Sequence record: OR924452
DNA: 64,000 nucleotides
Source: Escherichia phage 241
Strand: one strand, 5' to 3'
Positions 7,386 to 55,560 of this stretch are shown one piece after another (the first letter of the stretch is position 1; the number at the start of each line of letters is the position of its first letter). The notes under the pieces are model-generated. The model had not been told where the DNA came from, ran no database searches, and worked only from the letters and a program-made list of their open reading frames with translations. Position numbers and translations under genes: made by a program.

Positions 7386-7598
7386 ATGAAAGTGGTAAAC
7401 AAGAGATTGCTCGTCACCCAAGGCGGGGCGACGATAGTACGTGGACGGATATATGAACAAACCAAGCTGGGTGATCATAAGACTCGTCTGACGGTTAAAG
7501 CACCCGACGGTGGTTGGCCAACAAAGGTGATTGTCCCAGACGGCCTCATAGAACGAGGGACGGCGACGTATAAGGGTGCAGAGTTCAAAATTTATTAA
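7386..7598 (+). CDS. Hypothetical protein
   Basis: 70-aa ORF between a terminator and a promoter. Confidence 0.4.
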   Translation: MKVVNKRLLVTQGGATIVRGRIYEQTKLGDHKTRLTVKAPDGGWPTKVIVPDGLIERGTATYKGAEFKIY

Positions 7599-7604
7599 AA
7601 TATT

Positions 7605-7644
7605 TATTGAATAAAGTTTACTTCTTCAATAACTGGCGTATACT
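7605..7644 (+). promoter_or_regulatory. Sigma70-like early promoter (TTTACT-16 nt-TATACT) with upstream TTATTGAATAA palindrome
   Basis: -35-like TTTACT 7617-7622, -10-like TATACT 7639-7644, 16-nt spacer; the same architecture recurs at 53223-53267. Confidence 0.55.
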
Positions 7645-7693
7645 TCTAATTGTAGTACGAACAAACAACAATCTGAAGAGAAGGAAATACATC

Positions 7694-8251
7694 ATGGCAA
7701 TCGAAATTATCGCTCAATCAAAATCAGGCAAGACTGTAATGTACGGCACTGAAGAAGGCCGCTGCATCATCAACTACGGCACTATCACTGGCGAGTCTCC
7801 AGAGAAAGGTGGTCGCTATCTGGTTGAGTACGGTTCACGCCTCCTGATGGTAAGCAAAGTCGATGGTCGTGAAATCATGATTCCTCGTAAAGAATACTTT
7901 GACTCACGCTCTGCCGCGATGACTTTCTTCCTCTTCCAGAAACGCCACGAACTCTTCGTTGAAGCGAAAGACGCAGGTCTGGACGACGCGACGGCTGAGC
8001 TGATTGCCGAAGGTAAAATGACTCTCGAAGCTGCTCTGGGAGACATGGATTGCGAAGCCGAAGCACATTATATTGAATATTCCGCATATCAGAACGAATG
8101 TGAAGATGATCCGGAAGACGACGGATTCGACCCTGACCTCCACGGCGGCGAAGACGATAACACCCCTTCCTTAGAAGTTCTGATGGCTGGCGGCCAGGCC
8201 GCTTGGGAATGGCAGAACGAGAAGAACGCCTGGCTGGATTCCCGTATCTAA
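7694..8251 (+). CDS. Hypothetical acidic protein
   Basis: AAGGAAA RBS before ATG 7694 (MAIEIIAQ); strongly acidic C-terminus; terminator at 8258-8283. Confidence 0.55.
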   Translation: MAIEIIAQSKSGKTVMYGTEEGRCIINYGTITGESPEKGGRYLVEYGSRLLMVSKVDGREIMIPRKEYFDSRSAAMTFFLFQKRHELFVEAKDAGLDDATAELIAEGKMTLEAALGDMDCEAEAHYIEYSAYQNECEDDPEDDGFDPDLHGGEDDNTPSLEVLMAGGQAAWEWQNEKNAWLDSRI

Positions 8252-17158: not shown

Positions 17159-17215
17159 AGTGTTCCCTCCCTTCCATGCAACTAACTTTACTGCATTTAT
17201 TTATTGAATAAAGCG

Positions 17216-17785: not shown

Positions 17786-17939
17786 TTCCTGAGCCTCGTC
17801 AAATTAATTAAATGTCCCCACTATTATATTGGGAATATGTTTATTGAATATAACTCCAAGAAAGGCCAATAAAATAATGACAGCGATTATTAATAGGTAA
17901 AAACTACTTTTCTACAACATCAAGAAACTGTATCTTAAC

Positions 17940-25190: not shown

Positions 25191-25228
25191 CCTAAATACC
25201 CCATATTGGACATCCTTTATGGGGTATT
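25191..25228 (+). promoter_or_regulatory. Late-promoter-like motif plus hairpin (TAAATACCCCAT ... ATGGGGTATT)
   Basis: 10-bp perfect stem AATACCCCAT/ATGGGGTATT with a 14-nt loop, 3 nt before the ATG at 25232. Confidence 0.5.
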
Positions 25229-25231
25229 ATC

Positions 25232-27235
25232 ATGATTTCTCAATTCAATCAGCCACACGGCTCCACTTCAATATTTGTTAACAAACAATCTATCGCTCTG
25301 AATTTCGGTGTCACCAAAGACGAAGTTGTTTATTTCGCTGCTGGCATTGACCTTAGCGGATACAAAGTAATCTATGATGAATCGACTCAACGGGCTTATT
25401 CTCTTCCAGCTGGGATTGTTTCAGGAACTACTGCCATCAGTCTGGACGAAAAAGCCATTTTGACCCATTCGGCTGGCTCTGTTGATCTTGGAGAACTGGC
25501 TGTGCAACGCGGAGAGTTTGTTACTGTACCTGGTTCTTTTAATTTCGGCCATACCATTAATGTGAAAAATGAACTTCTTGTTCACGATGATGAAAAATAT
25601 CGATGGGATGGTTCTTTGCCAAAGGTAGTTGCCGCTGGTTCTACACCCGATAACTCAGGCGGTGTTGGCACAGGCGCGTGGGTTAGCGTTGGGGATGCGT
25701 CATTAAGGAATGAGTTAGCAAGTCCTTCAGGATCATCACTTTCAGGTCATTCAAATGGCCTTTCGGTAGCTGAAAACCTGAATAACCTCTTAGCAAAAGC
25801 ACAATTCATCACACCAGAGCAATTTTACAGCAATCATCCTGGTGAAACTGACTGGGCTGTGATGATTAACGAGGCATATTCCTATGCTCGCGATCATAAT
25901 AGTTCTGTGTTGCTTGCTAATGACTACCACACTGCGTCAACAATTGTTCACTTAGACGGTGTTACTGTTATTTGTACCGGGCGTATTATTGCATCGCCAA
26001 CAGGAACATATTCATACACCACCGCATTAGGTAATGAAGAGGAGGCTGCTTATGTAATTACTACTGAAAATGGTGTGTTTAACAATGCAAAATCTTCATC
26101 TCTTTACGGTCTAACATTGACATATACAGACAATAGAGAACCATCAGGATATACCGACCCTCACATACTAGCTAAAGGCGTTGTCATTACTGATACGGCT
26201 AATGTTTACATAAACAACCTGCAAACATTTGGGTTCTTAAATGGCGGTGTCGATGTTGGTGGAATTTCTGGTAATGGGTTTGAGATTGTAATAAATAAAT
26301 GTTTAGCCTGGATTTACGCATGGACGGATTCGGAGAAGATAGGATTCCGATGCAACGTTACAGACTCTACATTCTATGATGTCGTAACTGTAGCATATGG
26401 AATTGGAATTCATAATGTTAAAGGTGGTGGAAACGTCTATTTTAACGCGCACCCATGGGGGTATCCTTTAACCGCCGCTAATCTATACCCAAACAGACAG
26501 TGTAAAATTCAATTTCTGTTAACAGGGGGTGGCACAACTTTCTTCAGGCCGTATGCCGATACAATCACAAAATTAGACAGCAGTCAAAACGCTAGTCGGG
26601 CCAATGGTGGTGTTGGGTTTTACATCGACAACTGGAGAAATAAAATTATCGCAGCAGAGGTGGCGATACATAATGATGAGATTAGCACTGGAATGTCATT
26701 AGCTTACCTGGTAGGCGATGCCTCGCGTAATGAAATTGAATTCACAAACATAAACAACACATCGAAACTTGGGAATGAAAGAGTTTCATATGATTCAGGA
26801 TATCAAACCGCTTTATTTACAAACATTGTCAGAATTCCTGAGTATAACGCAGGTAATTTAAGCAACCTTACAGGAAGCATATCATTCAATGGTACAGGAG
26901 TTACTTCTTCTGGCACGTACAGTTTACGCAGAAGTGGTGAGTATATAGACATTCTTTTAACTATAGGAGTGACTTCAATATCAAGCCCATCCGGACCATT
27001 ATCAATCACGCTACCACGTGGTCTTGTGTGTAGATTTGGGCCATCAGCAGAGCCTGAGCAGACTTCGTGCTTTGGTAACATCAGTTCAATCAATATAGGT
27101 GTAATTGCAGTTCTAAACGGAAGCTCTATAGAGTTCTATTACAAGACAGCAAATGGGGCAAGGGTCCTTATTAATGCAGCTGGAGTATCAGTCGGGACTC
27201 TTGAGTTATTTTTAAGAGGTAAAATTTCGAATTAA
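25232..27235 (+). CDS. Tailspike protein (short N-terminal anchor type)
   Basis: 667 aa; first 160 aa are homologous to the N-terminus of the 826-aa tailspike; divergent C-terminal domain. Confidence 0.75.
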   Translation: MISQFNQPHGSTSIFVNKQSIALNFGVTKDEVVYFAAGIDLSGYKVIYDESTQRAYSLPAGIVSGTTAISLDEKAILTHSAGSVDLGELAVQRGEFVTVPGSFNFGHTINVKNELLVHDDEKYRWDGSLPKVVAAGSTPDNSGGVGTGAWVSVGDASLRNELASPSGSSLSGHSNGLSVAENLNNLLAKAQFITPEQFYSNHPGETDWAVMINEAYSYARDHNSSVLLANDYHTASTIVHLDGVTVICTGRIIASPTGTYSYTTALGNEEEAAYVITTENGVFNNAKSSSLYGLTLTYTDNREPSGYTDPHILAKGVVITDTANVYINNLQTFGFLNGGVDVGGISGNGFEIVINKCLAWIYAWTDSEKIGFRCNVTDSTFYDVVTVAYGIGIHNVKGGGNVYFNAHPWGYPLTAANLYPNRQCKIQFLLTGGGTTFFRPYADTITKLDSSQNASRANGGVGFYIDNWRNKIIAAEVAIHNDEISTGMSLAYLVGDASRNEIEFTNINNTSKLGNERVSYDSGYQTALFTNIVRIPEYNAGNLSNLTGSISFNGTGVTSSGTYSLRRSGEYIDILLTIGVTSISSPSGPLSITLPRGLVCRFGPSAEPEQTSCFGNISSINIGVIAVLNGSSIEFYYKTANGARVLINAAGVSVGTLELFLRGKISN

Positions 27236-27237
27236 AA

Positions 27238-27270
27238 TAACCCCGCTTCGGCGGGGTTTTGTTATTTTCT
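27238..27270 (+). terminator. Rho-independent terminator
   Basis: CCCCGCTTCGGCGGGG hairpin plus TTTTGTTATTTT. Confidence 0.8.
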
Positions 27271-27403: not shown

Positions 27404-27441
27404 ACTAAATACCCCATATTGGCAAATCCTTTATGGGGTAT
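27404..27441 (+). promoter_or_regulatory. Late-promoter-like motif plus hairpin (CTAAATACCCCAT ... ATGGGGTATT)
   Basis: Same element as at 25191; the track's start at 27433 lies inside the 3' arm of the hairpin. Confidence 0.5.
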
Positions 27442-27447
27442 TTTCAA

Positions 27448-29676
27448 ATGACCAGAAATGTAGAAGAATTATTCGGCGGCGTAGTCACAGCTCCCCACCA
27501 GATTCCTTTCACTTATAAATCAAGTGTCGGTGGAGAAACTTTCATTTCTCTACCTTTCTATCCTGTCACTGGTGTTGTCACAATTAACGGCGGCATGCAA
27601 GTTCCGTTAGACAACTTCGAGATAGACGGGAATACGTTAAACCTCGGGCGCGCATTGTCTAAAGATGACGTGGTTTATTGCCTGTTCGACAAAATCCTTT
27701 CACCAGAAGATACTTCTAAAGGCATTCGAATATACAAATTTCAAGCCGTGGGTGGGGAAACTGAATTCACGCCTGACTTTACTTCTTATGGTGTACAGTC
27801 TCTTTATATCGGTGGCGAGTACAAAACCCCAGATATAGAATATTCATACAACAGTACGACTGGGAAAGTTTCCCTACAAACTGCTCTGACTGCAGGGGTG
27901 TGGGTTGTTGCGGAGATGTCTGTTAAACAACCGAATATCAGTCCGGCGTTCGATCGCAGTATCCAAGAAATTGCCCGTTCGGCTAACGTAAAAGACTCTG
28001 AAGTCATTGTCAGCACTGATACCATATCTTTACTCGACGACAAGAAAGTTGTTTATGATTCAGCAGCGCAGGTTATTTATGGTTTACCAACTATTCCTGA
28101 TGGTTCAGTGATTTCTTCTGTATCTGATGGAAAATTGACTTATAATCCAGGTGATGTGCAGGTTGATCTGTTACCATTACCAGATTCTGCCCAGGCAGTT
28201 AAATTATTCTATTTGCAACCAAGTGGCGCAGAAAATATTAAAGTTTCCAGTGGCGACACAGTACAAGATATTCTGAATAATATCAATAAACACCGTGTTG
28301 TAAGCAGCATTTCAGAACTTTTGAATATATCTCCAACAGAAACGTCAGTTGTATTCGTGGCATCTTTCCATCCATCAACCAATTACGGGGGTGGATTCTT
28401 CCGTTGGGATCCGTCTGGAAACAAGGCAACCCACAATGGTGGTACGATTATTGATCCTGATAAAACGTTTCCGACTTGGGACAGCGCAGGTAAAACTTCT
28501 TGGTTTACCGCAAGCGGGACGGGTACTGGTGTTTGGCGTCGGCAAGACGTGATGGGTCATTACCGTGCTGAAGATTTCGGTGCACTCCCTTGGAACGTCG
28601 GGGACGCGCATGACAGTACCAAAGAATTCCAACAAGTGGCTAATGTGGCTTATCGGGGCGGTTGCTGGAGATGGACAGGTCGCCATCGCATTACGAGTTA
28701 TATCGATATCCCCAATAAACAGACTTTTGGTTCATACGCCCAAATGACTTCTGTTTATTCTGAATTATTCCAGCCTAGCAATTTCCAGGGGGTGCACGTT
28801 ATTTCTGATCCTTCTTTAGCGCGTTCTGTGCAAAATGCAGTCTTCTTTGATGCTGCGACCGGAGAAGCATTCCGTTGTGGGGAAGGTGCATCCCCGACCG
28901 ATTTTTTGGTGTACGGAAGAGGGTTTACAACTACTGGGATGGATTTGGCAACATCATTACCTTCGGCGGCGTCGTATTGTGACACCCAAGCATTCCGTCA
29001 TGGGAAGGCTATTAACGTGCGAAATGTTACTGTTGCGCTTATGAAGTACGCATTGGATTCTAATCCATGGGATGCCAGCAAAGGTGATTATTATTCCACA
29101 ACGGATCATATGACGATTTTGTATTGTTATTGCATTAGTCGTGTACCAACTGGCCAGGATATAACATTTAACACCAAGCATATCAATATGCGTGCATATG
29201 TAAACCAGATTGGCGATTATGGATTGGCAGTCCGAAATGTGGTGTTTATCGGTGGATCCATAGAAGGATATAACACTTCAACATTCTTACGATCCAGTAC
29301 TCAACTTTCTTTCAAAGGCACATATTTTGAAACGGGTGACACGTCATTCAATGGTACAGTATTCAGCCTTGTTGGTTGGTGTACTCTTAACTTTGAAGAA
29401 TGTCTTGTTTATTTGAACAACACCACAAACTTCGTGTCTTCTGGTGGTTCTGGGCAATCTGCTGGCGTCTTGGGTCTAACGATTAAATCTCAAGGTAACG
29501 TGTGGCGTAAAACTGACGCGGGGACAACCACAGTGTTTGCAGTTGACCCAGTCACTAATAAACAAGCCTTAGTTGGATCCGAAATATTGAATGCTGCGAG
29601 TGGGGCAACTATCGCATATTGGGCTGGTGCCGTCCCACCTGGCACATACACGGCTCCAATCAGTGTTGCATTTTAA
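27448..29676 (+). CDS. Tailspike protein (long form)
   Basis: Start moved to the ATG at 27448 (MTRNVEEL) by analogy with the 25232 gene; N-terminal modules shared with the 1057-aa tailspike. Confidence 0.7.
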   Translation: MTRNVEELFGGVVTAPHQIPFTYKSSVGGETFISLPFYPVTGVVTINGGMQVPLDNFEIDGNTLNLGRALSKDDVVYCLFDKILSPEDTSKGIRIYKFQAVGGETEFTPDFTSYGVQSLYIGGEYKTPDIEYSYNSTTGKVSLQTALTAGVWVVAEMSVKQPNISPAFDRSIQEIARSANVKDSEVIVSTDTISLLDDKKVVYDSAAQVIYGLPTIPDGSVISSVSDGKLTYNPGDVQVDLLPLPDSAQAVKLFYLQPSGAENIKVSSGDTVQDILNNINKHRVVSSISELLNISPTETSVVFVASFHPSTNYGGGFFRWDPSGNKATHNGGTIIDPDKTFPTWDSAGKTSWFTASGTGTGVWRRQDVMGHYRAEDFGALPWNVGDAHDSTKEFQQVANVAYRGGCWRWTGRHRITSYIDIPNKQTFGSYAQMTSVYSELFQPSNFQGVHVISDPSLARSVQNAVFFDAATGEAFRCGEGASPTDFLVYGRGFTTTGMDLATSLPSAASYCDTQAFRHGKAINVRNVTVALMKYALDSNPWDASKGDYYSTTDHMTILYCYCISRVPTGQDITFNTKHINMRAYVNQIGDYGLAVRNVVFIGGSIEGYNTSTFLRSSTQLSFKGTYFETGDTSFNGTVFSLVGWCTLNFEECLVYLNNTTNFVSSGGSGQSAGVLGLTIKSQGNVWRKTDAGTTTVFAVDPVTNKQALVGSEILNAASGATIAYWAGAVPPGTYTAPISVAF

Positions 29677-29723: not shown

Positions 29724-32204
29724 ATGAATCCGCAATTTGCTCAACCGAAAGGTTCTACTTCAAAAGAAACGAACAAAGATAGCATCGCCCGTAAATTTGG
29801 GTGCAAAAAGTCGGAAGTCGTTTATGCCAAAGCGGGACAGTCTTTGTCTGGTTATAAAGTGATCTACGATAAGGTGTCTCAACGTGCCTACGCTCTCCCT
29901 TCTAACATTGGTGCTGTAACGGTCACCAGTTTAGTTGACGGCATCCTCACGCACTCTGGAGGCACTGTAGATTTGGGTGCGCTGGCGGTGTTGCGTGAGG
30001 AATACGTCATTCTGATAGAAAATTTCACTTCCGGATTTACGATTCGTGTCAAGAACGAAGTCGTGAGCGATGGAGTGAATTTATACCGCTGGGGTGGTGG
30101 TTTACCAAAGACTGTCAATGCTGGTGAAGATCTAGACTCCACTGGAGGGATTAGCGTGGGGGCGTGGATTAGCGCGGGCGTTGCTTCATTGAGGAACGAT
30201 CTTGCTGCTAATGATGGGTTTAAATTTATTGGGCAATGTCCAGATATAGCAACATTAAGGACAATTGAACCTGGCGTCAATGGTCAAAGAATTATATTAC
30301 GGCAACATACGGCTGGAACTGGTCTTGGCGGCGGTTCATTTAGGGCTGTAGTTGATGGCACCGGATATGAAGACGATAACGGAGTGGTTATTAAAACAAC
30401 TGGCGGTGCCGCCTGGCTACGCCTCAACGCAGATAGAGTTAATCCGTTTATGTTTGGGGCAACAGGTGGTGTGGACGACACTGTGGCTGTTCAGGCCAGC
30501 GTAGATAGTGGTCGAGCCACCGAACTAACTGCGCCATTCAACGTCACTTCCATTAAGCTGAAGAAAAAATCTGCAAGTATCTACGGGTCAGGTATGCACA
30601 TCTCAAGGCTAGTGCAAAAACCAGGGGTGGCTGGTGACTGTGTGGTTATTGAAGATACCTGCTCGCTTATTAAATTGGATAATTTCGGTATTTACGGAAC
30701 TGGTGCACAGCAAGATACTGCATTCACTGCGGGAACGCGTGGATTAGTTGTTCCAACCCCCACCGGACTTTCTACAAACTACCCATTTAACACATCAGCA
30801 GACCCACGAAGGGATTTGTGTATCAACAACGTGCATATTGCTGGGTTTGATGAGTATGGACTTAAAATCGAAAATGGAAACTTTTCAGTATCAACGACAA
30901 ACCTTCTTATTAACCACATTAATCAAGTTGGTGCGTATTGCGCAACAACAGACTGGACTTGGACAAATATCCAGATAAATACCTGTGGTAAGGAGTGTCT
31001 TGTCTTAGATGGCGCTGGCAACGCCCGTATTATTGGTGCTAAACTTATTTGGGCTAACTGGCAACCATATGCTGCTTCAGGTAGTTACCCTGGATTGAAG
31101 ATAAACAATTGTCAAAACATTACTATGAGTGCTACAGAGGTTCAGGACTGCGGTTCTGATGGCATAATCTTTAAAGACAGTTATTCTATTTCAATTTCAG
31201 GACTAAACACGAACAGAAACAGCATAAACAGCAACTACTCATATAACAACTGCGTATTTGATAGTTGCGACGTTACAATTGATGGGTTCGTTGGTCTTAA
31301 CTATTCTTCAAACTCAGGTTCGGGGATACCTTCCAGTGCCGCTAATTTTAGATTCCTGTCTTCAGATTGTACCGTAGTCGTAAACGGAAATGTAGAGTCA
31401 GAGTATCTCGGTATCTTGTTCCGTGGTGATAACAATATTATTCAGCCAACGAATTCAGACCTTAAAATAAATGGATTGATTAATTACGATAAAACAAGCA
31501 TTACATTTCAAAATGTAATGCCTTCATTCGATGGTGTTAGTACCACTCCTGTATTCGTTCCCGCCCCATCAATTATAGGCCAGGCAAACGGACTTCGTTT
31601 GTCACAAGGAAATAAAGACAAAATCAGGTATACAACATCCAGAGTTCCAGCTGGTGGCGTGTCACTATCTGCAATTCTAATACCAACAATAACTGGCGCT
31701 GAAACGTTTAATATTATTGTTCTGGGTACTGGATTTGGCTCTACCAACAATAGCCTCTACTTTCAGTTAAATGTCGACTCATCAGGAAATCAAAGCGTTG
31801 CATTACTTATCAGTGGCGATGGTCAAACACAAGTTCTTTCTGGGGTGATTCCGGATGAATTTAAGATACAAAGTGGAGTTCCGTACCATTTTGCATTGGG
31901 TGCTGCTCCTGGGAGATTCTGGTGGAGTATATTAAATATTCAAACAGGTTCACGTATAAGAAGGGCATTTAGACGTGATTACTTAAGCGCTCCATTTAAC
32001 AGCTTATTTGGTAATGATGTTTCTATAAATTTCTTCTCAGGTGAAGGTTCATCAGATGAAGCATGCTCTGGGATTGGGGCAAAAGTTTATGCTGGAGCAT
32101 TCAGTTCTGAATCTGATTATTGCGCAAGCAGATACTACAGTTTGTACAATCCTATAGACCCATCTAAAATGTTTAGCTATAGAACACTTGATGGCTCCAT
32201 ATAA
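29724..32204 (+). CDS. Tailspike protein (short N-terminal anchor type)
   Basis: 826 aa; AGGAG RBS; N-terminal 160 aa paralogous to the 667-aa tailspike; beta-helix-like repeats. Confidence 0.75.
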   Translation: MNPQFAQPKGSTSKETNKDSIARKFGCKKSEVVYAKAGQSLSGYKVIYDKVSQRAYALPSNIGAVTVTSLVDGILTHSGGTVDLGALAVLREEYVILIENFTSGFTIRVKNEVVSDGVNLYRWGGGLPKTVNAGEDLDSTGGISVGAWISAGVASLRNDLAANDGFKFIGQCPDIATLRTIEPGVNGQRIILRQHTAGTGLGGGSFRAVVDGTGYEDDNGVVIKTTGGAAWLRLNADRVNPFMFGATGGVDDTVAVQASVDSGRATELTAPFNVTSIKLKKKSASIYGSGMHISRLVQKPGVAGDCVVIEDTCSLIKLDNFGIYGTGAQQDTAFTAGTRGLVVPTPTGLSTNYPFNTSADPRRDLCINNVHIAGFDEYGLKIENGNFSVSTTNLLINHINQVGAYCATTDWTWTNIQINTCGKECLVLDGAGNARIIGAKLIWANWQPYAASGSYPGLKINNCQNITMSATEVQDCGSDGIIFKDSYSISISGLNTNRNSINSNYSYNNCVFDSCDVTIDGFVGLNYSSNSGSGIPSSAANFRFLSSDCTVVVNGNVESEYLGILFRGDNNIIQPTNSDLKINGLINYDKTSITFQNVMPSFDGVSTTPVFVPAPSIIGQANGLRLSQGNKDKIRYTTSRVPAGGVSLSAILIPTITGAETFNIIVLGTGFGSTNNSLYFQLNVDSSGNQSVALLISGDGQTQVLSGVIPDEFKIQSGVPYHFALGAAPGRFWWSILNIQTGSRIRRAFRRDYLSAPFNSLFGNDVSINFFSGEGSSDEACSGIGAKVYAGAFSSESDYCASRYYSLYNPIDPSKMFSYRTLDGSI

Positions 32205-32207
32205 CAA

Positions 32208-32236
32208 AAACCCCGCTTCAGCGGGGTTTTTATTTC
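32208..32236 (+). terminator. Rho-independent terminator
   Basis: CCCCGCTTCAGCGGGG hairpin plus TTTTTATTTCT. Confidence 0.8.
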
Positions 32237-32296: not shown

Positions 32297-35200
32297 ATGC
32301 AATCTACAAATCTAAACCGTCGCCCGTATTGGGACGACTGGAATCCTGGAAAACGGTTTTCACGGATTCTTTTTCGCCCGATGCCTATTAAAGTTCAGAC
32401 TCGTGAACTAAACCAGATGCAGACTATTCTGCAAGATCAGATTGAAAAGCTGGGAAACCATTTGTTCAAAGATGGATCTATGGTTATCCCTGGTGGTCTG
32501 ACGATTACCAACGCCGCTGTATCTATGAAATTCACTCTGGCTGGCGGTACTGAGTTTACTGATCTGGAAGGGATTACTGAACTTTATGTTCTGGGAAAAG
32601 ACAATAATGCCAAAGCGCGTGTGCTATCTCTTGAACGTGATCTGTCTGCTCCGGATACGATGTTGGCCATCCTTGAAATGACAGAAGTGGGTAATGCAGA
32701 TGGCTTCCACGTCAACGACAATCTGTATTTCCAAACCTATGACGTCAATGACAACTTCATTCGTATTGGTTATGGTATCGCAGCTGCGGTGACTGGTTCT
32801 ATCGTCGCTCGTATGACGAAGGGCGTTTACTTCATTCGTGGGATGTTCCTTGATGTTGATGACGCGACTCTCATCGTCGATAAAACTTCAAACACTTCTT
32901 CCCATCGCGTCGGGTTTAAAGTCACTGAAACCATCGTGACTGAATCTGAAGACGAATCCCTTTATTCAAACGCTCAGGGAACGATTAACTCCAAAGCCCC
33001 AGGCGCTCATCGTCTTCGAATAGATCTGGTCTTATCTCGATTTGATTATGATGCTGTGGTTGAAGACTTTGTTGAACTGGCCAAAGTTCGTGATGGTAAA
33101 ATCCAGTCTATGGTGACTCAGTCCACCTATAATATTCTGGAAGACACGTTGGCTCAACGGACGTATGAAACCAACGGCGATTACAACGTTTCAACGCATC
33201 AGATCGACATCCGCGAACACCTGAAAGTCAATAACAATGGTGGTGTATTCAATGCTGCTGATGGCGGCGACGAAAGTAAATTCGTGTCTGTAATGAAACC
33301 AGGTATTTCCTATGTTCGCGGTCGTCGTATCGAAAACGTCGGGGAAGAGTTGGTGATCGTTGACAAGGCACGGGATACCGATGTCCTGAATAACACGCCT
33401 GTCGCAGTTGCTACAGGGAATTATCTGGTCACCAAGAACTCCAAAGGTGTTCCAGTAATATCTCGCACTGTGCGATACAAGTTATTGAACGCATCTGGCG
33501 CTGCTCAAGCCACGGCGTTGTGTATATCCGCTGAACGCAATTCAACTGAATTCCGTCTGTACATGCGTGATTTGGTTGTGACTGGGGACGCGTCCACTAT
33601 CACCAAAGTGTCTTATGAAGAAAGTGGTATCACCATGTTCTCTGCTGAACTGGAATCCAACCAGTTTAACCAGAGTTCTATGGTAGACTTGATCTTCTCT
33701 CTTCCGGTCTTCGGTGTTAAAACATTAGCGCCAACAGGTTCCGTGGATATCAACTACACAGTCCTCAGAACTTATAAGGTGACGCTAGACAGCAGCGGTT
33801 CTGGTTCTATTTCAGCTCCGCTGGGATATAGTTTCTCTCCTGAATTTTCGTTGTATTCTTCTGCGAAATCCGATGGTTCAGAAGCGCAATTTGATATCTC
33901 TGGCTCTTTGTCACTGACTGGTTCTCCGGTGGGTTCGGCTTTGCAGATTTCCCTGGGTAGCGGTAATGCTAACCAGTCAATCAATTTGCTGGCACTGATG
34001 ATCCGCACTACGGCCACGATCAAAACGAAGACGATAACTGAAACCACAGAGTCTGTGACTTTTACTTCCCAAACCAGTAGACCTCTGGCAAATCACGACG
34101 GCTGGAAATTGGTATCTGTCAAAAATGATACTGGCGCGGACGTGACTTCGAGCTTCACCCTCGACGGTGGCCAACGCGATGCGGGATATTACAAGGCTAA
34201 TCTGTTATCCACCGCTGGAGCCATTTCAGGGACGTATACGGTGGTGTATCAATACTTCGCGCATAGTTCGGGGGATTTCTTCTCAGCGGATTCGTATACT
34301 TCAATGGATTACAAAGATATCCCGAATTATACATCCTCCACATCAGGGGCGGTGTATGGTTTGGCCGATAGCCTTGATTTCCGTCCGAAAATTACCAACG
34401 GGACATCCGACACTGATATGGTTCGCCCGAATACGGCTGTCATCCTGGACACAGAGTATTATTTGCCTCGTATCGACGCGATTTATCTGGCAGATAATGG
34501 CGTGTTTGGTGTAGCCCGTGGCATCAGTTCCAACAACCTGGCGTCCCCAGCAATACCTGCAAACTCCATGCGTTTGTATGAACTGTTGATTCCCCCATAC
34601 ACGCCGAATATCGATGATATACAAATTCGCACCATCGATAACCGTCGTTATACGATGCGTGATATCGGTAAACTGGAAACGCGTATTTCCAACGTTGAAT
34701 ACTACACCTCTCTGTCGCAGCTGGAATCTTCGGCGATGACACAACAGGTATTTGATCCAATCACGGGTAATCCGCGATTCAAAAACGGTATCGCCGCCGA
34801 TCCATTCAAAGACTTCCGTCTTATTGATGATCTGTCTGAAGATTGGATGGGATCTATCGATACGGAAAATGGACGTTTGCGTCCGTTTGTTCAACAGAAC
34901 GCCGTTGACATGACTCCAGTAGGCTGGAACAAAGTGATGGATGGTATGGTGGTTTGTAACTACACGCCTGAAATCTCCGTGAACCAAGAATACGCGACGA
35001 CGACGATCAACGTTAACCCGTATGCTGTATTCAACTGGGAAGGTTTCTTGAAGATTAACCCGACCACGGATTACTGGTTTGAAAACTACTATGTCGCCCC
35101 GCGTGTTATCAATGAAACGATCAACACTCGTGGTACTGTACAAGAAGGTTCGGTGTACGGGACGTGGCGTACTGTTTCTGTTTCTGATCGTGTTTGGGAG

Positions 35201-37135
35201 CCGCATGGCGCTGGTGGTGTGTGGTGGGGATACCGCTATCGCACGACTGTTTCTGCCCGTGATGTCACCACATACACATACACGGACAAAACAACCACGA
35301 CCATGACTGGCGAACAGATTGTGGAAACGCAGGTTATCCCATACATGCGCGAAATTGATATTTCTTTCGACGCTTCTGGGTTGCGACCTTTCACTCGCAT
35401 GTATGCATTCTTCTCAGGTCGTGATGTGAATCTGTATTGCAAGCCGAATGGTGGTAATTTTGGTGACCCAATCACCACTGATGCCAATGGCGCAGTCAAA
35501 GGCGTGTTCCGCGTTCCTCAGAACGATACGATCAAGTTCAACACAGGTGACAACGTGTTCCGCTTGACGGATAGCCCCGTTGACAGTAAATCTGCGGATG
35601 ATACGCTGACTAATGCTGAAATTGTTCACAAATCTTTCGGTAAGAAACAAGGGATTCAAAAGACCTTTGTCAATACTCGAGTTCTGGGTTATACCGCAAG
35701 CACCAGCACCGAAACCAGCACTTCTGAAGTTGTGGTCGACCAATGGCGTGATCCAATTGCCCAATCGTTTATGGTGGCAACTAAGATCGGTGGTGAATAT
35801 ATCGAAGGCGTGGAAGTATTCTTCTCCACCAAGTCACGTGATGTTCCGATCACCCTGGAAATTCGCGAGATGGAGAATGGCTTACCATCCCATACCGTCA
35901 TAACTCGTAAAACTTTGAACCCATCTGAGGTGACGATCTCTACAGACTCGTCTGGCGGTACGAAGTTCACCTTCGATTATCCGGTATACTTGCAAGCATC
36001 GACTGAGTTTGCTATTGTTCTGTTGGCGAATACTCAGGATTACAACGCGTATATCGCGGAAATGGGCAAGAAAAACCTTCTGTCCAACGAATATATCGCC
36101 AAACAACCGTATACAGGGGTGTTCTTCACTTCTTCAAACGGTTCTACATGGTCTCCCAACCAGATGGCAGATATGAAGTTCCGTGTTTATCGTTGTAACT
36201 TTGCTGCTGGTCAGAACGTTGTAACATTTGATCCGAAACTTGGACCGAAACAACGTCCGCTGGGGTTGAACACTCTCAACTGTGTGAGCGGGTCTTCTGT
36301 CGTGACCGTGTTTGCACCTGGTCATGGTTTGGTTGCTGGGAACAATGTCACTCTGTCTGAATTGACAGGCGGTTGTGGCTTTACTCCTGAACAACTTAAC
36401 AAAACGTTTACTGTGACAGATGCGAGCTATACTTCATTCAAGATTGACGTCGGTTCAGCAGCAGACAGCAACGGGCAAATCGGCGGGGATAATGCTTCGT
36501 TCTTGGGCAATTATCTGGTTGATATGTTCTATGCGAGTGTTACAAATTCAGCTCTGGAAGGTTCGATTCTGAAATTGGAATACCGTTATCGCGATGCCAC
36601 TTCAAATTCTATGTCTGATTGGGCTGAGTTTGAAACTGACACTGACGTGGCGTTGCCGACTGAAGGGATCTATCGTCAGGTTGGGGATTTCCAGATCCGA
36701 GCCACCATGACGCGCAGTGAAAACAACGTGTACACCGCTCCAATGATTGATGGCGATGACCTGAGCGTAATCTTCAACTCATACGGCGTGGATCCATTTG
36801 AAGATGTCTTCAAATATGTGACAAAAGACATCGGATTTGATAACCCATGTTCGACTGTGAAGTTGTTCTTTGGTGCAATGCTCCCATCTCAGTCTTCTAT
36901 GAAGGTGCAGGTGAAACTTCTTAGAGCAGGTCAGGAGATGGATAGTGTGGCTTGGGAAGATGTTACTCCAACGTCGCCTCTGGTCAACGACGGTTCTACA
37001 TTCTTTGAATATGAATACGACAAGACTGTGGCGAGCAATAACCCGTTTGTTGGCCTGAAAGTCCGAGCGCTTGTACGGGGGAACCGCGTTGCTCCTCCAT
37101 CATTCAAAGACTTCCGTCTTATTGCTCTGGCATAA
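32297..37135 (+). CDS. Giant virion structural protein (1612 aa), probably baseplate or tail associated
   Basis: Single uninterrupted 4.8-kb ORF in the structural operon, between the tailspikes and the neck genes. Confidence 0.8.
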   Translation: MQSTNLNRRPYWDDWNPGKRFSRILFRPMPIKVQTRELNQMQTILQDQIEKLGNHLFKDGSMVIPGGLTITNAAVSMKFTLAGGTEFTDLEGITELYVLGKDNNAKARVLSLERDLSAPDTMLAILEMTEVGNADGFHVNDNLYFQTYDVNDNFIRIGYGIAAAVTGSIVARMTKGVYFIRGMFLDVDDATLIVDKTSNTSSHRVGFKVTETIVTESEDESLYSNAQGTINSKAPGAHRLRIDLVLSRFDYDAVVEDFVELAKVRDGKIQSMVTQSTYNILEDTLAQRTYETNGDYNVSTHQIDIREHLKVNNNGGVFNAADGGDESKFVSVMKPGISYVRGRRIENVGEELVIVDKARDTDVLNNTPVAVATGNYLVTKNSKGVPVISRTVRYKLLNASGAAQATALCISAERNSTEFRLYMRDLVVTGDASTITKVSYEESGITMFSAELESNQFNQSSMVDLIFSLPVFGVKTLAPTGSVDINYTVLRTYKVTLDSSGSGSISAPLGYSFSPEFSLYSSAKSDGSEAQFDISGSLSLTGSPVGSALQISLGSGNANQSINLLALMIRTTATIKTKTITETTESVTFTSQTSRPLANHDGWKLVSVKNDTGADVTSSFTLDGGQRDAGYYKANLLSTAGAISGTYTVVYQYFAHSSGDFFSADSYTSMDYKDIPNYTSSTSGAVYGLADSLDFRPKITNGTSDTDMVRPNTAVILDTEYYLPRIDAIYLADNGVFGVARGISSNNLASPAIPANSMRLYELLIPPYTPNIDDIQIRTIDNRRYTMRDIGKLETRISNVEYYTSLSQLESSAMTQQVFDPITGNPRFKNGIAADPFKDFRLIDDLSEDWMGSIDTENGRLRPFVQQNAVDMTPVGWNKVMDGMVVCNYTPEISVNQEYATTTINVNPYAVFNWEGFLKINPTTDYWFENYYVAPRVINETINTRGTVQEGSVYGTWRTVSVSDRVWEPHGAGGVWWGYRYRTTVSARDVTTYTYTDKTTTTMTGEQIVETQVIPYMREIDISFDASGLRPFTRMYAFFSGRDVNLYCKPNGGNFGDPITTDANGAVKGVFRVPQNDTIKFNTGDNVFRLTDSPVDSKSADDTLTNAEIVHKSFGKKQGIQKTFVNTRVLGYTASTSTETSTSEVVVDQWRDPIAQSFMVATKIGGEYIEGVEVFFSTKSRDVPITLEIREMENGLPSHTVITRKTLNPSEVTISTDSSGGTKFTFDYPVYLQASTEFAIVLLANTQDYNAYIAEMGKKNLLSNEYIAKQPYTGVFFTSSNGSTWSPNQMADMKFRVYRCNFAAGQNVVTFDPKLGPKQRPLGLNTLNCVSGSSVVTVFAPGHGLVAGNNVTLSELTGGCGFTPEQLNKTFTVTDASYTSFKIDVGSAADSNGQIGGDNASFLGNYLVDMFYASVTNSALEGSILKLEYRYRDATSNSMSDWAEFETDTDVALPTEGIYRQVGDFQIRATMTRSENNVYTAPMIDGDDLSVIFNSYGVDPFEDVFKYVTKDIGFDNPCSTVKLFFGAMLPSQSSMKVQVKLLRAGQEMDSVAWEDVTPTSPLVNDGSTFFEYEYDKTVASNNPFVGLKVRALVRGNRVAPPSFKDFRLIALA

Positions 37136-43071: not shown

Positions 43072-44967
43072 ATGGCAACTCAAAGCTTCAGCGTTGCGCC
43101 GTCCGTACAGTGGACTGAGCGTGATGCCACGCTTCAGACTTCTCCGTCCGTGGTTGTTCAGGGCGCGACAGTCGGCAAATTTCAATGGGGTGAAGTCGAA
43201 CTCCCAGTGCTGGTGACTGGTGGTGAGACGGGTTTGGTGAAGAAATTCTTCAAACCTAATGACAGCACTGCGACAGATTTCCTTGTGATTGCAGACTTTT
43301 TGTCTTACAGCTCTATGGCATGGGTGACTCGTGTTGTTGGTCCTCTGGCCAAGAACTCTGTCACCAAAGGCCAGACAGCCATCACGATCAAAAACAAGCT
43401 GGATTTTGAAACAGCAAGTCCGTCAGCGTCTATCACTTGGGCTGGTCGTTATCCAGGATCTCTGGGAAATGACATCGCCATCAATGTTTGTGACTCCGCT
43501 GGATTTCCGACCTGGGAATTCCGTAACAACTTTGCGTACGCACCTCAATCTGGTGAATTCCATGTTGTGGTTGTAGACAAAGTTGGGCGCATTACTGACT
43601 CTGCAGGCGCAGTCGGTCAGGTTGATCGTATATCTGTTTCTGGCACGGCAACTGCAGCTGGCACCATCAGTGTGGCAGGTGAAGATATTGCATATCTGGA
43701 TACTGATACTCCGGCCACTTTGGCGACCAAAATCGGCGCGGCGCTGACGGCGCTGACAGATGTTTATTCTTCTGTCGTTGTTAAGTCTAACACTGTCATC
43801 GTGACCCATAAAGCTATTGGTCCCCAGACAGTTACTGCTATTGTTCCAGATGATAAGGGGCTGACTGCAACCGCCGTGATTACCACTGTTGGCGCATCTG
43901 GTTCTATTATCGAAAAATACGAACTCATGCAGAACACACAGGGTTCCAAAAAGTCCGATGGCGCGAATGCGTACTTCAAAGATGTCATCAATGATACATC
44001 AAATTGGGTGTACACCTTCGCTACCGCTCTGGCCGCAGGTGTTGTTGAATTAGAAGGCGGCGTAGACGACTACAATATCAACCGTGTCGCGGCTATCCAA
44101 GTTCTGAACAACGCCGAAGCATATGATGCGAAGCCAGTATTTGCATACTGTGAAGAGTTGATTGAACAACAGGCATTAATCGACTTGTCTACCGAGCGAA
44201 AAGACACCGTTTCCTTCGTGTCGCCTTTGCGTGATACTGTGGTCGGCAACCGTGGCCGTGAGATGGACGATGTGGTCGCTTGGCGTGAAAGTCTGGTGCG
44301 CGACTCCTCCTATTTCTTCATGGACGACAACTGGGCATACGTGTACGATAAATACAACGATAAGATGCGCTGGATCCCTGCTTGCGGCGGTACAGCGGGT
44401 GTTTGGGCACGTAGTATTGAAATCGCGGGTATCTACAAATCTCCTGCGTTCCACAACCGTGGCAAATACAACAACTACAATCGAATGGCGTGGTCTGCGT
44501 CTTCCGATGAACGTGCCGTGTTGTACCGCAACCAGATTAACAGCATCGTGACCTTCTCCAATGAAGGTATCGTGTTGTATGGTGACAAAACTGGTCTGAC
44601 TCGTCCGTCTGCTTTCGATCGTATCAATGTTCGCGGTCTGTTTATTATGGCAGAACAGAACATCGCTGCAATCGCCAAATATTACCTTGGTGAGAACAAT
44701 GATGCGTTCACTCGCAGTCTGTTCAGCAACGCTGTTCGTCCTTATATTCGCCAGCTGGCAAATATGGGTGCGATCTACGATGGTAAAGTCAAGTGTGACG
44801 AAGATAACAACACTGCTGACGTCATCGCGGCAAATCAGATGGTCGCTGGTATCTGGCTGAAACCGGAATACAGCATCAATTGGGTGTATCTTGACTTTGC
44901 TGCAGTTCGTCCGGATATGGAGTTCTCTGAAATTGAATCCGGCGGCGGCATCGTTGCTGCTTCTTAA
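43072..44967 (+). CDS. gp18: Tail sheath protein (T4 gp18-like)
   Basis: GKFQWGEVELPV matches the T4 gp18 N-terminus; AAGGAA RBS; start at the ATG at 43072. Confidence 0.85.
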   Translation: MATQSFSVAPSVQWTERDATLQTSPSVVVQGATVGKFQWGEVELPVLVTGGETGLVKKFFKPNDSTATDFLVIADFLSYSSMAWVTRVVGPLAKNSVTKGQTAITIKNKLDFETASPSASITWAGRYPGSLGNDIAINVCDSAGFPTWEFRNNFAYAPQSGEFHVVVVDKVGRITDSAGAVGQVDRISVSGTATAAGTISVAGEDIAYLDTDTPATLATKIGAALTALTDVYSSVVVKSNTVIVTHKAIGPQTVTAIVPDDKGLTATAVITTVGASGSIIEKYELMQNTQGSKKSDGANAYFKDVINDTSNWVYTFATALAAGVVELEGGVDDYNINRVAAIQVLNNAEAYDAKPVFAYCEELIEQQALIDLSTERKDTVSFVSPLRDTVVGNRGREMDDVVAWRESLVRDSSYFFMDDNWAYVYDKYNDKMRWIPACGGTAGVWARSIEIAGIYKSPAFHNRGKYNNYNRMAWSASSDERAVLYRNQINSIVTFSNEGIVLYGDKTGLTRPSAFDRINVRGLFIMAEQNIAAIAKYYLGENNDAFTRSLFSNAVRPYIRQLANMGAIYDGKVKCDEDNNTADVIAANQMVAGIWLKPEYSINWVYLDFAAVRPDMEFSEIESGGGIVAAS

Positions 44968-44973
44968 AAGATC

Positions 44974-45000
44974 AACCCCGCTTCGGCGGGGTTTTCCTTT
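44974..45000 (+). terminator. Rho-independent terminator
   Basis: AACCCCGCTTCGGCGGGGTT hairpin plus TTTCCTTT. Confidence 0.8.
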
Positions 45001-51310: not shown

Positions 51311-51330
51311 TCAACAGGTTTTGATAAACA

Positions 51331-51358
51331 AACCCCGCCATGTGCGGGGTTTTTCTTT
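51331..51358 (+). terminator. Rho-independent terminator
   Basis: CCCCGCCATGTGCGGGG hairpin plus TTTTTCTTT. Confidence 0.8.
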
Positions 51359-51643: not shown

Positions 51644-51730
51644 TTGTTTATCGTAACGATTTAATACGCGAATAGTTCAATAACAATTCCTGTTGTACGA
51701 TATAACTTTCTTACAACAGGAGTATCAGTC

Positions 51731-52045
51731 ATGACAACCCGAAATATTACCTCTGAACAATCCGTGTCACAAATCCTCATTAATTCCCGCACCCAAAAAG
51801 AACGTCTTTTTGACATCCTCACTAATGTGATCAATATTCGTCGACAATTAGATGGTGAATTTCCCGAATCTGATTCTGAAGAAAAATCAACATACAATCC
51901 AGGTCTTGTTGGTGCTATCCTTAACATACAAGGAGAGCAGGACGATATCATCGATAGAATCAATGCCCACATGGACGTCATCCATACTAAACTGGGAACG
52001 TTTTATCACCCAAATTGTGAAGACGAGTCTAAAGATAATTGTTAA
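51731..52045 (+). CDS. Hypothetical protein
   Basis: 104-aa ORF with AGGAG RBS. Confidence 0.5.
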   Translation: MTTRNITSEQSVSQILINSRTQKERLFDILTNVINIRRQLDGEFPESDSEEKSTYNPGLVGAILNIQGEQDDIIDRINAHMDVIHTKLGTFYHPNCEDESKDNC

Positions 52046-52976: not shown

Positions 52977-53213
52977 ATGAGAATCAAAAAGATTGGAGCA
53001 AGCCCGTTGACGGGCACTATCTTCCAAGGTACATTGAATACCAAAACCAGTATGTGGGTAGGTGAGAAGACCGACGTGACTAACGACTGTGTAGCGGCTA
53101 CGGCTGAACACATGCGCCACATCAAGAAAGACTACTGCTTCCCTACTAAAGACGGCAAGTTCCTGGTGCTGAGCGCTGAGGTTCACGACACTCTTCCTGA
53201 TCGCTTCAAATAA
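52977..53213 (+). CDS. Hypothetical small protein
   Basis: 78-aa ORF closely following the previous gene. Confidence 0.45.
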   Translation: MRIKKIGASPLTGTIFQGTLNTKTSMWVGEKTDVTNDCVAATAEHMRHIKKDYCFPTKDGKFLVLSAEVHDTLPDRFK

Positions 53214-53222
53214 ATTTAAAAT

Positions 53223-53267
53223 TTATTCAATAAACGGGGTTTACTTCTTCAATAAACCCCGTATACT
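53223..53267 (+). promoter_or_regulatory. Sigma70-like early promoter (TTTACT-16 nt-TATACT) with upstream TTATTCAATAA palindrome
   Basis: -35-like TTTACT 53240-53245 and -10-like TATACT 53262-53267; near-identical to the 7605-7644 element. Confidence 0.55.
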
Positions 53268-53316
53268 TCATTCCATAAGCAGCACAACACTGACTCTGAA
53301 ATGAAGGAACTACATC

Positions 53317-53781
53317 ATGACAACCGTAAAAATCTCCGTCTGGGCATTCAACAATTTCACCAAATTTGACGCGTTTGTTAAAAACGCTCTGGGCATCACC
53401 AACATAGAATCTTTCACTTCTTATGACCGCGAAGATCAGGTCAAAATGCTTCGTCCTGAAATCGACCTTGACGCAATGCTGAACGCCATCAAGAATCACG
53501 ATGACAATCTGGCTGAATTCGAAAACCTCCGCACCTCTATCTTCAAAAAGAATGGCGGCATCCGTAAGCTGAGCAACAAAACCATCAAATATGTCACCGA
53601 AGGGTTCTTTGTGGTGTTCGACTTCATAGAAACCAAGCCGAACGAACTTCGTAAAGATTTAGACGGCAACGTTATCACCCTGAAAATGTTTGGCGAAGCC
53701 AAGGCCGATATGATGCGTGATGGCCTGTGTGATGAGACATTCACATACGACGAATATTGCGATCAGTGCCAAGATCTGTAA
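53317..53781 (+). CDS. Hypothetical protein
   Basis: 154-aa ORF with AAGGAA RBS downstream of the promoter. Confidence 0.5.
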   Translation: MTTVKISVWAFNNFTKFDAFVKNALGITNIESFTSYDREDQVKMLRPEIDLDAMLNAIKNHDDNLAEFENLRTSIFKKNGGIRKLSNKTIKYVTEGFFVVFDFIETKPNELRKDLDGNVITLKMFGEAKADMMRDGLCDETFTYDEYCDQCQDL

Positions 53782-54831: not shown

Positions 54832-55560
54832 ATGAACGCACAAATCTACGATGTCCTTTCCTCTGGTAACGCATTTAGCAACCCGCTTCCGTCCCTCTCC
54901 GGTCCCTCACAGGATTTAATCACCAGTGGTAGTACCAATATACCATTGATAACTGCCAACGCGACTCCGGAAATGCAGTTGGCTATGTCAGCAGGTGGAT
55001 TAACACCAGATAAACTTACAGCAGCCACAAACATGTATAGCTCTGCCAACACGGGGATAACGACACTGAACACATATGGCGACCAGAGCATAAATGAAGC
55101 GTATTCAAGAATTGGGACTTCCGTTTCATATAAATCAGGTTTGAAAAGTATATCACGGGAACCAAACAATTGTGACCTGATCAACAAAGCATTCGGTGTT
55201 GTTCAGGATCTAGGCCGCCAATGGTTAAACGCTATGGAAGGCGCTCTCCAGACTGTGACTAACAAGATATCGGAATTGTATGACATGATTATGGAAGGTG
55301 CCTCAGAAGGTATGGCAAAACTACAGCAATTGGCTGCTGAAGTAACAGGACATATCAATGAGGCAATAACCGCCGTCAATGGAGTTATAAACGATATCAC
55401 CGATGGGATAGCTGCAGAACTTGCTCATATTGAAAGTATGATCAAAGAATGTCTAAACTTCTCTTTTGCGAATGTTCTTGGAGAATGGGCCAAAGATCTC
55501 TGTGCTGGAGGCGTTATTGATAAAATAGGGACTCCAGAATTAAAAGAGTCCCTGAAATAA
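54832..55560 (+). CDS. Hypothetical protein
   Basis: 242-aa ORF directly after the promoter-hairpin element. Confidence 0.55.
   Translation: MNAQIYDVLSSGNAFSNPLPSLSGPSQDLITSGSTNIPLITANATPEMQLAMSAGGLTPDKLTAATNMYSSANTGITTLNTYGDQSINEAYSRIGTSVSYKSGLKSISREPNNCDLINKAFGVVQDLGRQWLNAMEGALQTVTNKISELYDMIMEGASEGMAKLQQLAAEVTGHINEAITAVNGVINDITDGIAAELAHIESMIKECLNFSFANVLGEWAKDLCAGGVIDKIGTPELKESLK

Follow-up and report, generated by a model that had tools for sequence, protein, structure and literature searches.

The DNA analysed here, referred to as the window, is a 64-kb stretch of Escherichia phage 241 (OR924452), a Kuttervirus (Vi01-like, Ackermannviridae) with 98-99% identity to the Salmonella phages Mooltan, Marshall and vB_SenM-AKM_ssTn. 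It contains two nearly identical predicted promoters, P1 and P2, each placed in a short intergenic cassette in front of a small gene, and both cassettes carry copies of an 8-mer, TTCAATAA (complement TTATTGAA), hereafter called the box. For comparison three phages were analysed: Mooltan (Kuttervirus) and the Erwinia phage Bue1 (Nezavisimistyvirus), each as a complete genome, and the Dickeya phage LIMEstone1 (Limestonevirus; NC_019925), of whose 152-kb genome 150 kb were covered. A third copy of the cassette, P3, lies at position 96294 of Mooltan.

The P1 cassette (7599-7693, plus strand; 95 bp) fills the entire gap between genes 7386-7598 and 7694-8251, from stop codon to ATG, in a cluster of small plus-strand hypothetical genes that adjoins the DNA polymerase gene. 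All its elements are given on the plus strand. The upstream box TTATTGAATAA (7604-7614) is located at about -48 to -38. Its core TTATTGAA (7604-7611) reads TTCAATAA on the minus strand and is retained in the versions of the cassette from Klebsiella, Erwinia and Serratia phages. It is followed by the -35 hexamer TTTACT (7617-7622), a T4-type early -35 (TTTACW), by the spacer box TTCAATAA (7625-7632) and, 6 bp further on, by the -10 hexamer TATACT (7639-7644), so that the two hexamers are separated by 16 nt. Together with the box at 7604-7611 the spacer box forms an inverted repeat of 21 bp start-to-start. Transcription is predicted to start at about 7651. The cassette ends in a conserved translation start region, CTGAAGAGAAGGAAATACATCATG (7673-7696), with the Shine-Dalgarno sequence AAGGA at 7681-7685 and the ATG at 7694-7696; this motif was seen again in other cassettes and in Bue1. 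The gene predicted to be driven by P1 (7694-8251) encodes a protein of 185 amino acids with an acidic C-terminus, which belongs to phrog_4823 (unknown function) and gave no match in a Pfam search.

The P2 cassette (53214-53316, plus strand; 103 bp) likewise extends from a stop codon, that of gene 52977-53213, to an ATG, that of gene 53317-53781, and is found in a row of small hypothetical genes 3' of the major capsid gene. Its upstream box TTATTCAATAA (53223-53233) shows the P1 box in reverse complement, so that the core, at 53226-53233, reads TTCAATAA on the plus strand. Directly after it follows a stem-loop (53234-53262), in which ACGGGGTTTA (53234-53243) pairs with TAAACCCCGT (53253-53262). 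This structure has a folding energy of -14 kcal/mol (z = -5.5; 0 of 200 shuffles equally stable), and the spacer box and some of the -35 lie inside it. The -35 hexamer TTTACT (53240-53245) and the -10 hexamer TATACT (53262-53267) are again 16 nt apart, and in the LIMEstone1 orthologue they are annotated as minus_35_signal (as GTTTAC) and minus_10_signal. The spacer box TTCAATAA (53248-53255) ends 6 bp 5' of the -10 and lies 22 bp start-to-start from the upstream copy. We predict a transcription start at about 53274. The conserved translation start region is CTGAAATGAAGGAACTACATCATG (53296-53319), and the gene predicted to be driven by P2 (53317-53781) encodes 154 amino acids without a significant Pfam match.

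A sequence-only reading of the window had described P1 and P2 as a near-identical pair of TTTACT-16 nt-TATACT promoters. Direct reading of the sequence confirmed this, with the P1 box starting at 7604, one base further to the left than had been proposed. The window holds just these two TTTACT-N16-TATACT sites. They have the exact 16-mer TTTACTTCTTCAATAA in common, and the observed number of near matches was reached by no shuffle. The similarity is longer than first described, with 77% identity over approx. 115 bp, and takes in the AT-rich leader, the -10 with the following TC, and the start region CTGAA..GAAGGAA.TACATCATG. The two cassettes differ in the gap between the 11-bp box and the -35, which is 2 nt in P1 vs 6 nt in P2, and in the GGGG/CCCC stem, which is extra in P2. 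P3 is 68-73% identical to P1 and P2, and has a terminator hairpin (-13.6 kcal/mol) immediately 5' of its -35.

In the promoter(early) stem-loop (PeSL) cassettes of T4-like phages, the early promoters of the T4/PST version have the consensus TTTACW-N17-TAYWAT (Arbiol et al. 2010, PMC2839356; Comeau et al. 2014, PMC4122927). The -35 of P1 and P2 fits TTTACW, their -10 departs from TAYWAT at one of the 6 positions, the fifth, which is C, and their spacer is 16 bp vs approx. 17 bp. Paralogous cassettes show spacers of 16-17 bp and a -10 of TATAAT or TATTAT. The TGn of an extended -10 is absent from both P1 and P2, which have CG in front of the -10. A and T make up 82% (P1) and 75% (P2) of the 40 nt that lead up to the -35. 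In the compared genomes, TTTACT is coupled to a -10-like hexamer, which stands at N16-17 much more frequently than at other spacings, with 9 such sites in Mooltan (p = 1.5e-8), 6 in Bue1 (p = 1.2e-7) and 7 in LIMEstone1 (p = 1.7e-8). The corresponding coupling of TTGACA-N16-18-TATAAT was not enriched in any of these three phages. TTTACT-type, TTCAATAA-type and late promoters seem to be the only kinds in use in them.

Orthologues of both sites have been listed before. In the RefSeq record of LIMEstone1 (NC_019925) the P2 orthologue is labelled 'putative early promoter' (-35 GTTTAC, -10 TATACT), and the paper on phage AG3 lists a P1-type promoter, Porf138 (TTttacttcttcaataactcacgTATAAT); the promoter call is therefore not new. 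Kutter et al. (2011) were unable to identify early promoters in phage CBA120 and reported that it has no Alt, ModA, MotA or AsiA. The suggestion of early sigma70-like promoters made from the window alone is thus supported in silico by the T4/PST consensus, by the enrichment in three genera and by the LIMEstone1 and AG3 listings. An assignment of P1 and P2 to the T4-type early sigma70 promoters is credible, and we infer from it that they would act early.

Among the TTTACT promoters of the three genera the boxes are found at regular positions. Counted from the first base of the -35, the spacer box begins after 7-9 bp, and it ends 6-7 bp before the -10. The other copy, in most cases inverted, is placed 4-7 bp 5' of the -35. 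Start-to-start, the pairs are 20-23 bp apart in 12 of 15 cases and 32 bp apart in the 3 cases with an inserted hairpin, that is, about two or three helical turns, so that the copies bracket the -35. The same two-box arrangement was found in Serratia phage Kevin. BLAST searches returned approx. 3 cassette copies per genome in approx. 280 phage records, essentially all of them Ackermannviridae, and Kuttervirus genomes contain three near-identical copies together with at least 5 more diverged ones. The IMG/VR database was scanned with the exact 16-mer, which on its own is too short a query for this collection. Of at least 120 loci checked, 10 passed a filter for box, 16-mer and -10; nine of these were true cassettes and the tenth (L149) was a chance pass.

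The cassettes are conserved as units while the genes around them change. In 18 related contigs the P1 interval is nearly invariant while both coding flanks diverge. Downstream of it the window has the gene for the 185-amino-acid protein, L014 and L023 have a divergent allele of 175 amino acids, and L013 has an unrelated gene of 74 amino acids. In L022 the first two genes of the cluster are deleted, and the cassette directly precedes the third. The window and LIMEstone1 agree in 98.3% of the P2 cassette, whereas the flanks share 73% (upstream coding) and 61% (downstream), and the protein encoded 3' of the cassette in LIMEstone1 differs from that in the window. The cassettes thus mark points of gene exchange between relatives, as PeSLs do; their anatomy, spacing, conservation and position at breakpoints are shown directly by the sequences.

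The box itself had been described as an 11-bp palindrome-like element. The element is real, but its conserved core is the 8-mer TTCAATAA, and the palindrome is kept only in part. A motif search, which had been proposed as a check, gave 16 matches to the 11-mer with at most one mismatch in the window vs 2.2 expected, a count reached by 0 of 100 shuffles. Matches at palindromic sites were tallied on both strands. Exact copies of the 8-mer are concentrated in intergenic DNA, with 25 of 43 in Mooltan (where 7.9% of the genome is intergenic), 31 of 44 in Bue1 (7.5%), 14 of 27 in LIMEstone1 (7.4%) and 9 of 17 in the window (10%). This is a 7-9 fold enrichment, and in Mooltan and Bue1 58-70% of the exact copies are intergenic. 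We rejected a chance origin of the pattern on the grounds of the shuffles and of its replication in three genera.

Measured from the box, the position of the next -10-like hexamer showed two peaks, one at N6-7, as in P1 and P2, and a larger one at N11-13. The latter comprises 10 of 43 boxes in Mooltan (Poisson p = 5e-10), 12 of 43 in Bue1 (p = 1e-12) and 5 of 27 in LIMEstone1 (p = 3e-4), and is restricted to the TTCAATAA orientation. An alignment of 37 N11-13 sites from the three genomes showed conservation only of the box, with the consensus t.TTCAATAA, and of TATaaT; a -35 at 16-18 bp was not seen. These box-at-minus-30 sites precede non-structural genes, such as the gene after the polymerase gene, the tRNA region, denV, nrdA and many small open reading frames, and their -10 often lies within the loop of a terminator-like hairpin. 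The TTCAATAA box thereby appears to mark a second, previously undescribed class of promoters, probably read by a phage factor. There would be approx. 15-20 such predicted promoters per genome, each with a single oriented box 12+/-1 bp 5' of a near-consensus -10, in place of a -35. Neither the upstream nor the spacer boxes of P1 and P2 have a -10 hexamer 12 bp to their 3' side on either of the two strands checked. These copies are therefore not box-at-minus-30 promoters, and for the same reason divergent or second promoters at P1 and P2 were rejected.

Several members of this predicted class are found in the window. The sequence-only reading had noticed the box at 17201-17211 and at 17841-17851 without the same promoter. 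Both boxes are present, the one exact and the other with one mismatch in the 11-mer (TTATTGAATAT), but that at 17841 belongs to a predicted promoter of the second class. There the minus strand has a perfect arrangement (17848-17823) of TTCAATAA (17848-17841), N12 and TATAAT (17828-17823), upstream of gene 17785-17216, with the ATG approx. 37 nt after the -10 and no significant hairpin (z = -0.3). At the other position the minus-strand box TTCAATAA (17208-17201) has only a weak -10, TAAAGT at N10 (site 17208-17185), upstream of the gene starting at 17150, and is doubtful as a promoter.

A further predicted site on the minus strand, in the tRNA region (14495-14470), consists of TTCAATAA, N12 and TATGAT and has an identical orthologue in LIMEstone1 (129786, plus strand). 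It is situated between minus-strand tRNA genes (13072-13144, 13502-13582 and 14595-14667) and could drive those downstream of it. Immediately 3' of the DNA polymerase gene, TTCAATAA, N12 and TATAAT are found on the minus strand at 3695-3670, the -10 lying within the loop of a GGGGGA/TCCCCC hairpin. The AG3 orthologue of this predicted promoter is Porf237, and the site is retained across genera in the window, LIMEstone1, AG3 and Bue1, with a different stem sequence in Bue1.

On the plus strand there are two candidates. The one at 51676-51701 (TTCAATAA, N12, TACGAT) coincides with a hairpin (51676-51733, CCTGTTGTA...TACAACAGG) of which the loop contains the -10-like hexamer and the 3' arm extends into the Shine-Dalgarno sequence of gene 51731. 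In read-through transcripts the ribosome site of this gene could be masked, which would not be the case in transcripts started in the loop; T4 genes e and soc have a similar masking arrangement. The other candidate (63750-63774) has a box with one mismatch (TTCATTAA), N11 and TATAAT, and lies inside a terminator hairpin (-15.8 kcal/mol).

The closest known counterpart of the cassettes are the PeSL cassettes of T4-like phages, conserved over approx. 100 bp, which take part in modular shuffling beside ORFans (PMC2839356; PMC4122927). Like these, the cassettes described here are conserved non-coding units of approx. 100 bp that reach from an upstream stop codon to a downstream ATG and occur in many copies per genome. 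They have an AT-rich leader and a predicted sigma70-type early promoter, end in a Shine-Dalgarno sequence and ATG, and stand beside small genes of unknown function at breakpoints of insertions, deletions or replacements. P2 and P3 also have a stable stem-loop, poly-G...poly-C as in PeSLs, in a variable position (over the -35 in P2, 5' of the -35 in P3). Unlike PeSLs they belong to Ackermannviridae and not to the T4-like Straboviridae, P1 is without a stable stem-loop, and the -35 is flanked by a specific 8-mer (TTCAATAA/TTATTGAA), which is not a described feature of PeSLs.

We concluded, with a probability of roughly 0.6, that P1 and P2 are copies of a compact regulatory cassette set before small accessory genes in Ackermannviridae, with the box as a family-specific promoter signal. 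A number of points weigh against this conclusion. In a generic sigma70 scan P1 and P2 score only 9/12, equal to many chance sites, and the scan alone cannot establish the promoters. Some TTTACT promoters do not have both boxes. The P1 hairpin is weak, its boxes pairing at -4.6 kcal/mol (z = -0.9), which is no better than in shuffles, and lacking a stable stem-loop P1 is not a full PeSL. The near-identity of the paralogous cassettes could stem from recombination or gene conversion and not from selection on each base. In the Ackermannviridae literature searched we found no transcriptome, promoter mapping, transcript 5' ends, in vitro transcription or footprints. No candidate for a box-binding factor emerged either: a tblastn search of two genomes with T4 MotA and AsiA sequences, a weak test, gave only E >= 0.09, and Pfam, PHROG and PDB sequence searches with the cassette-driven and neighbouring small proteins were uninformative. 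Part of the present description may also have a precedent, as the abstract of the 2012 'Viunalikevirus' article by Adriaenssens et al. reportedly mentions 'conserved regulatory sequences'.

The sequence-only reading had offered an upstream (UP) element or a regulator site as the function of the box. A plain UP element, contacted by the C-terminal domain of the RNA polymerase alpha subunit (alpha-CTD), could account for the upstream copy, with the spacer copy carried along by recombinational homogenisation of the cassettes. The position of the box, at about -48 to -38 within a leader of 75-82% A+T, is in line with this, as are the AT-rich or UP regions 5' of the -35 in T4 early promoters and PeSLs. 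By hand count the P1 leader agrees at approx. 9 of the 15 specified positions with what we take to be the UP consensus. A plain UP element is, however, disfavoured by the G/C conserved at the centre of the box across genera, by its occurrence in either orientation, and by the reuse of the 8-mer at other promoter positions. The 8-mer in the spacer is identical across genera despite differing adjacent bases (TCT vs AAG), the box stands alone at a constant 12+/-1 bp from the -10 in a single orientation at 37 sites, and in P3 the upstream copy is pushed 10 bp farther by the inserted hairpin and still retained. The fixed distance, the single orientation and the recurrence in the spacer are unlike the behaviour of UP elements contacted by alpha-CTD and favour the other half of the proposal, that is, a specific factor-binding site or promoter element, and we consider the plain UP element unlikely; the AT-rich leader may add to alpha-CTD binding. 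Proteins of the host, such as H-NS, IHF, Fis, ArgR or similar nucleoid and regulatory proteins, could also bind the box and be exploited by the phage, and the several Enterobacterales hosts share these proteins. TTCAATAAAT appears similar to TCGATAAATT, the high-affinity motif of H-NS. By inspection, however, there was no good match to the consensus of IHF (WATCAANNNNTTR), the ARG box or Fis. A site centred near -28 without a -35 is not where known host activators work, and the phage would gain little from conserved silencer sites on its own promoters. A host protein as reader of the box therefore seems very unlikely to us.

A function in RNA or in termination was also considered, in which TTCAATAA would be the A-rich shoulder of bidirectional terminators and the -10 hexamers in the loops would be incidental. 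Stable hairpins are indeed present in P2, P3 and at many box sites, several of them followed by T-runs, the stem-loops of PeSLs are proven terminators in RB49 and phi1, and the boxes of P1 pair weakly (-4.6 kcal/mol). The z value of this P1 pairing (-0.9) speaks against such a function, and the P2 stem has ATACTTCATTCC in the place of a T-run on its 3' side, so that neither cassette has a hairpin of the kind expected for an intrinsic terminator. Several box-N12-TATAAT sites show no significant hairpin, for example 17848-17823. The foot of the hairpin lies anywhere from 1 to 6 nt from the box, while the -10 hexamer keeps to 12+/-1 bp, which argues for a promoter and not a terminator shoulder; the hexamers in the loops are close to TATAAT and not arbitrary AT-rich loops. 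We give this explanation little credence. Recombination has more in its favour. If the cassette were mainly a recombination substrate or mobile regulatory cassette, the box would be kept by frequent exchange and not by a function of its own. The cassettes sit exactly on breakpoints of gene replacement and deletion, their identity between genera is 98% vs approx. 60-73% in the flanks, and PeSL-mediated shuffling and mini-circles provide a precedent. Such exchange leaves unexplained the isolated TTCAATAA copies at a fixed distance from a -10 in unrelated contexts. As the principal explanation we regard it as rather unlikely; it is compatible with, and not exclusive of, a regulatory cassette with a family-specific signal.

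For the regulatory cassettes we propose the following mode of action. Host sigma70 polymerase would fire P1 and P2 immediately, as suggested by their T4-type consensus, and by analogy with PeSLs the stem-loops would insulate the cassettes by attenuating transcription coming in from upstream. The transcripts would begin with a leader of approx. 45 nt ending in the conserved ribosome-binding region. The geometry of the sites suggests that a DNA-binding factor specified by the phage could read TTCAATAA and activate the box-at-minus-30 promoters, and that the same factor, bound on both sides of the -35, could modulate the early cassettes, probably by repression. Promoter activity and its timing, as well as the existence and effect of the factor, are what we infer from the arrangement of these motifs. 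The more specific proposal that TTCAATAA is the box of a family-wide Ackermannviridae transcription factor, which replaces the contact between sigma70 and the -35 and, once made, switches off the early cassettes, is tentative, and we think it less likely than not.

Two proteins stood out in the protein searches, a homologue of HU/IHF and a small 'transcriptional regulator' (phrog_639), and neither could be linked to the box. The HU/IHF homologue (PF00216, E = 1e-29) is family-wide and is encoded in Mooltan (Mooltan_111, L004:36331-36609) and Bue1 (L029:29113-29385). Thymidine in Ackermannviridae DNA is partly hypermodified, derived from hydroxymethyl-deoxyuridine, and phage SPO1 combines DNA of the hydroxymethyluracil type with a phage regulator of the HU family, TF1. 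To see in the HU/IHF homologue the factor that reads the box is speculative. Another arrangement of comparable geometry is that of lambda CII at PRE, where two short repeats flank the -35 at helical-repeat distance. Both comparisons are pure analogy, as the sites share no sequence similarity with the cassette boxes and the HU homologue is unlinked to them.

In T4 middle promoters a MotA box stands 12+/-1 bp from the -10, and the promoters are activated by sigma appropriation through MotA and AsiA (Hinton 2010, PMC2988021). The box-at-minus-30 sites resemble them in having an oriented box of 8-9 bp, the same distance of 12+/-1 bp, a near-consensus -10 and no -35, and in fronting genes of replication, nucleotide metabolism, tRNA and small non-structural proteins. 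Their frequent combination with a stem-loop is similar to the 'PmSL' variant of phage nt-1. They differ from T4 middle promoters in that the box is TTCAATAA and not (a/t)(a/t)(a/t)TGCTT(t/c)A, and homologues of MotA and AsiA were not detectable. P1 and P2 are not of the middle type, because they possess a proper -35 and only 6 bp, not 12, separate their box from the -10. In the LIMEstone1 annotation, three of the five 'putative middle promoters' (27794-27818, 55428-55450 and 61690-61712) are in reality TTTACT-N17-TAnnnT sequences, registered on a CTT triplet that was mistaken for the centre of a MotA box.

With T4 early promoters the cassettes have in common the -35 TTTAC(T/A), which in P1 and P2 follows a G (GTTTAC), the -10 TATAMT and the AT-rich upstream region; by this analogy, their expected role would be the immediate capture of host RNA polymerase. 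They differ from T4 early promoters in the CG found instead of the TGn of an extended -10, in the 16-bp spacer of P1 and P2, and in spacer and upstream sequences that are conserved and specific to the phage family. In addition, no Alt or ModA homologues are present (Kutter et al. 2011).

Three elements of this description are apparently new, namely a PeSL-like cassette in Ackermannviridae, the TTCAATAA signal and a second promoter class. No description of them was found in the literature searched, and their novelty is uncertain. Vi01-like phages are in wide use in biocontrol and diagnostics for Salmonella, E. coli O157, Klebsiella and Dickeya. For their gene regulation, the predictions give a map of three promoter classes, TTTACT-N16/17-TATAMT cassettes, TTCAATAA-N12-TATAAT and CTAAATA late promoters, and the 8-mer TTCAATAA could be used as bait for the missing regulator. 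As a portable unit of terminator, promoter and ribosome-binding site, the cassette may drive gene shuffling in the family and could serve phage engineering. If a factor reading TTCAATAA does exist, it would be a counterpart of sigma appropriation that is independent of MotA and AsiA, and would explain the timing of prereplicative genes in Vi01-like phages, a question raised for CBA120 (Kutter et al. 2011).

Further sequence elements were observed in the window. A scan of the whole window against Rfam returned three tRNAs only, and the conserved leader of the cassettes matched no known RNA family. Late genes of Mooltan carry CTAAATA(C/T)C approx. 30-45 nt before the ATG. This motif, distinct from TTCAATAA, occurs in the window for example near 25210-25228 and 27424-27442, upstream of the tailspike genes. 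It is probably the gp55-type late promoter of the family, the T4 counterpart being TATAAATA. At these upstream positions a conserved hairpin of the leader, ACCCCAT...ATGGGGT, comes after the late motif. A family of terminator hairpins that are nearly identical, AACCCCGC(TTCG)GCGGGGTTTT, is located at 27224-27265, 32194-32235, 44959-45000 and 51317-51358. Finally, an exact direct repeat of 24 nt, CATTCAAAGACTTCCGTCTTATTG, is present at 34803-34826 and, 2.3 kb apart, at 37101-37124, where the second copy lies just 5' of a small gene (Mooltan_048).

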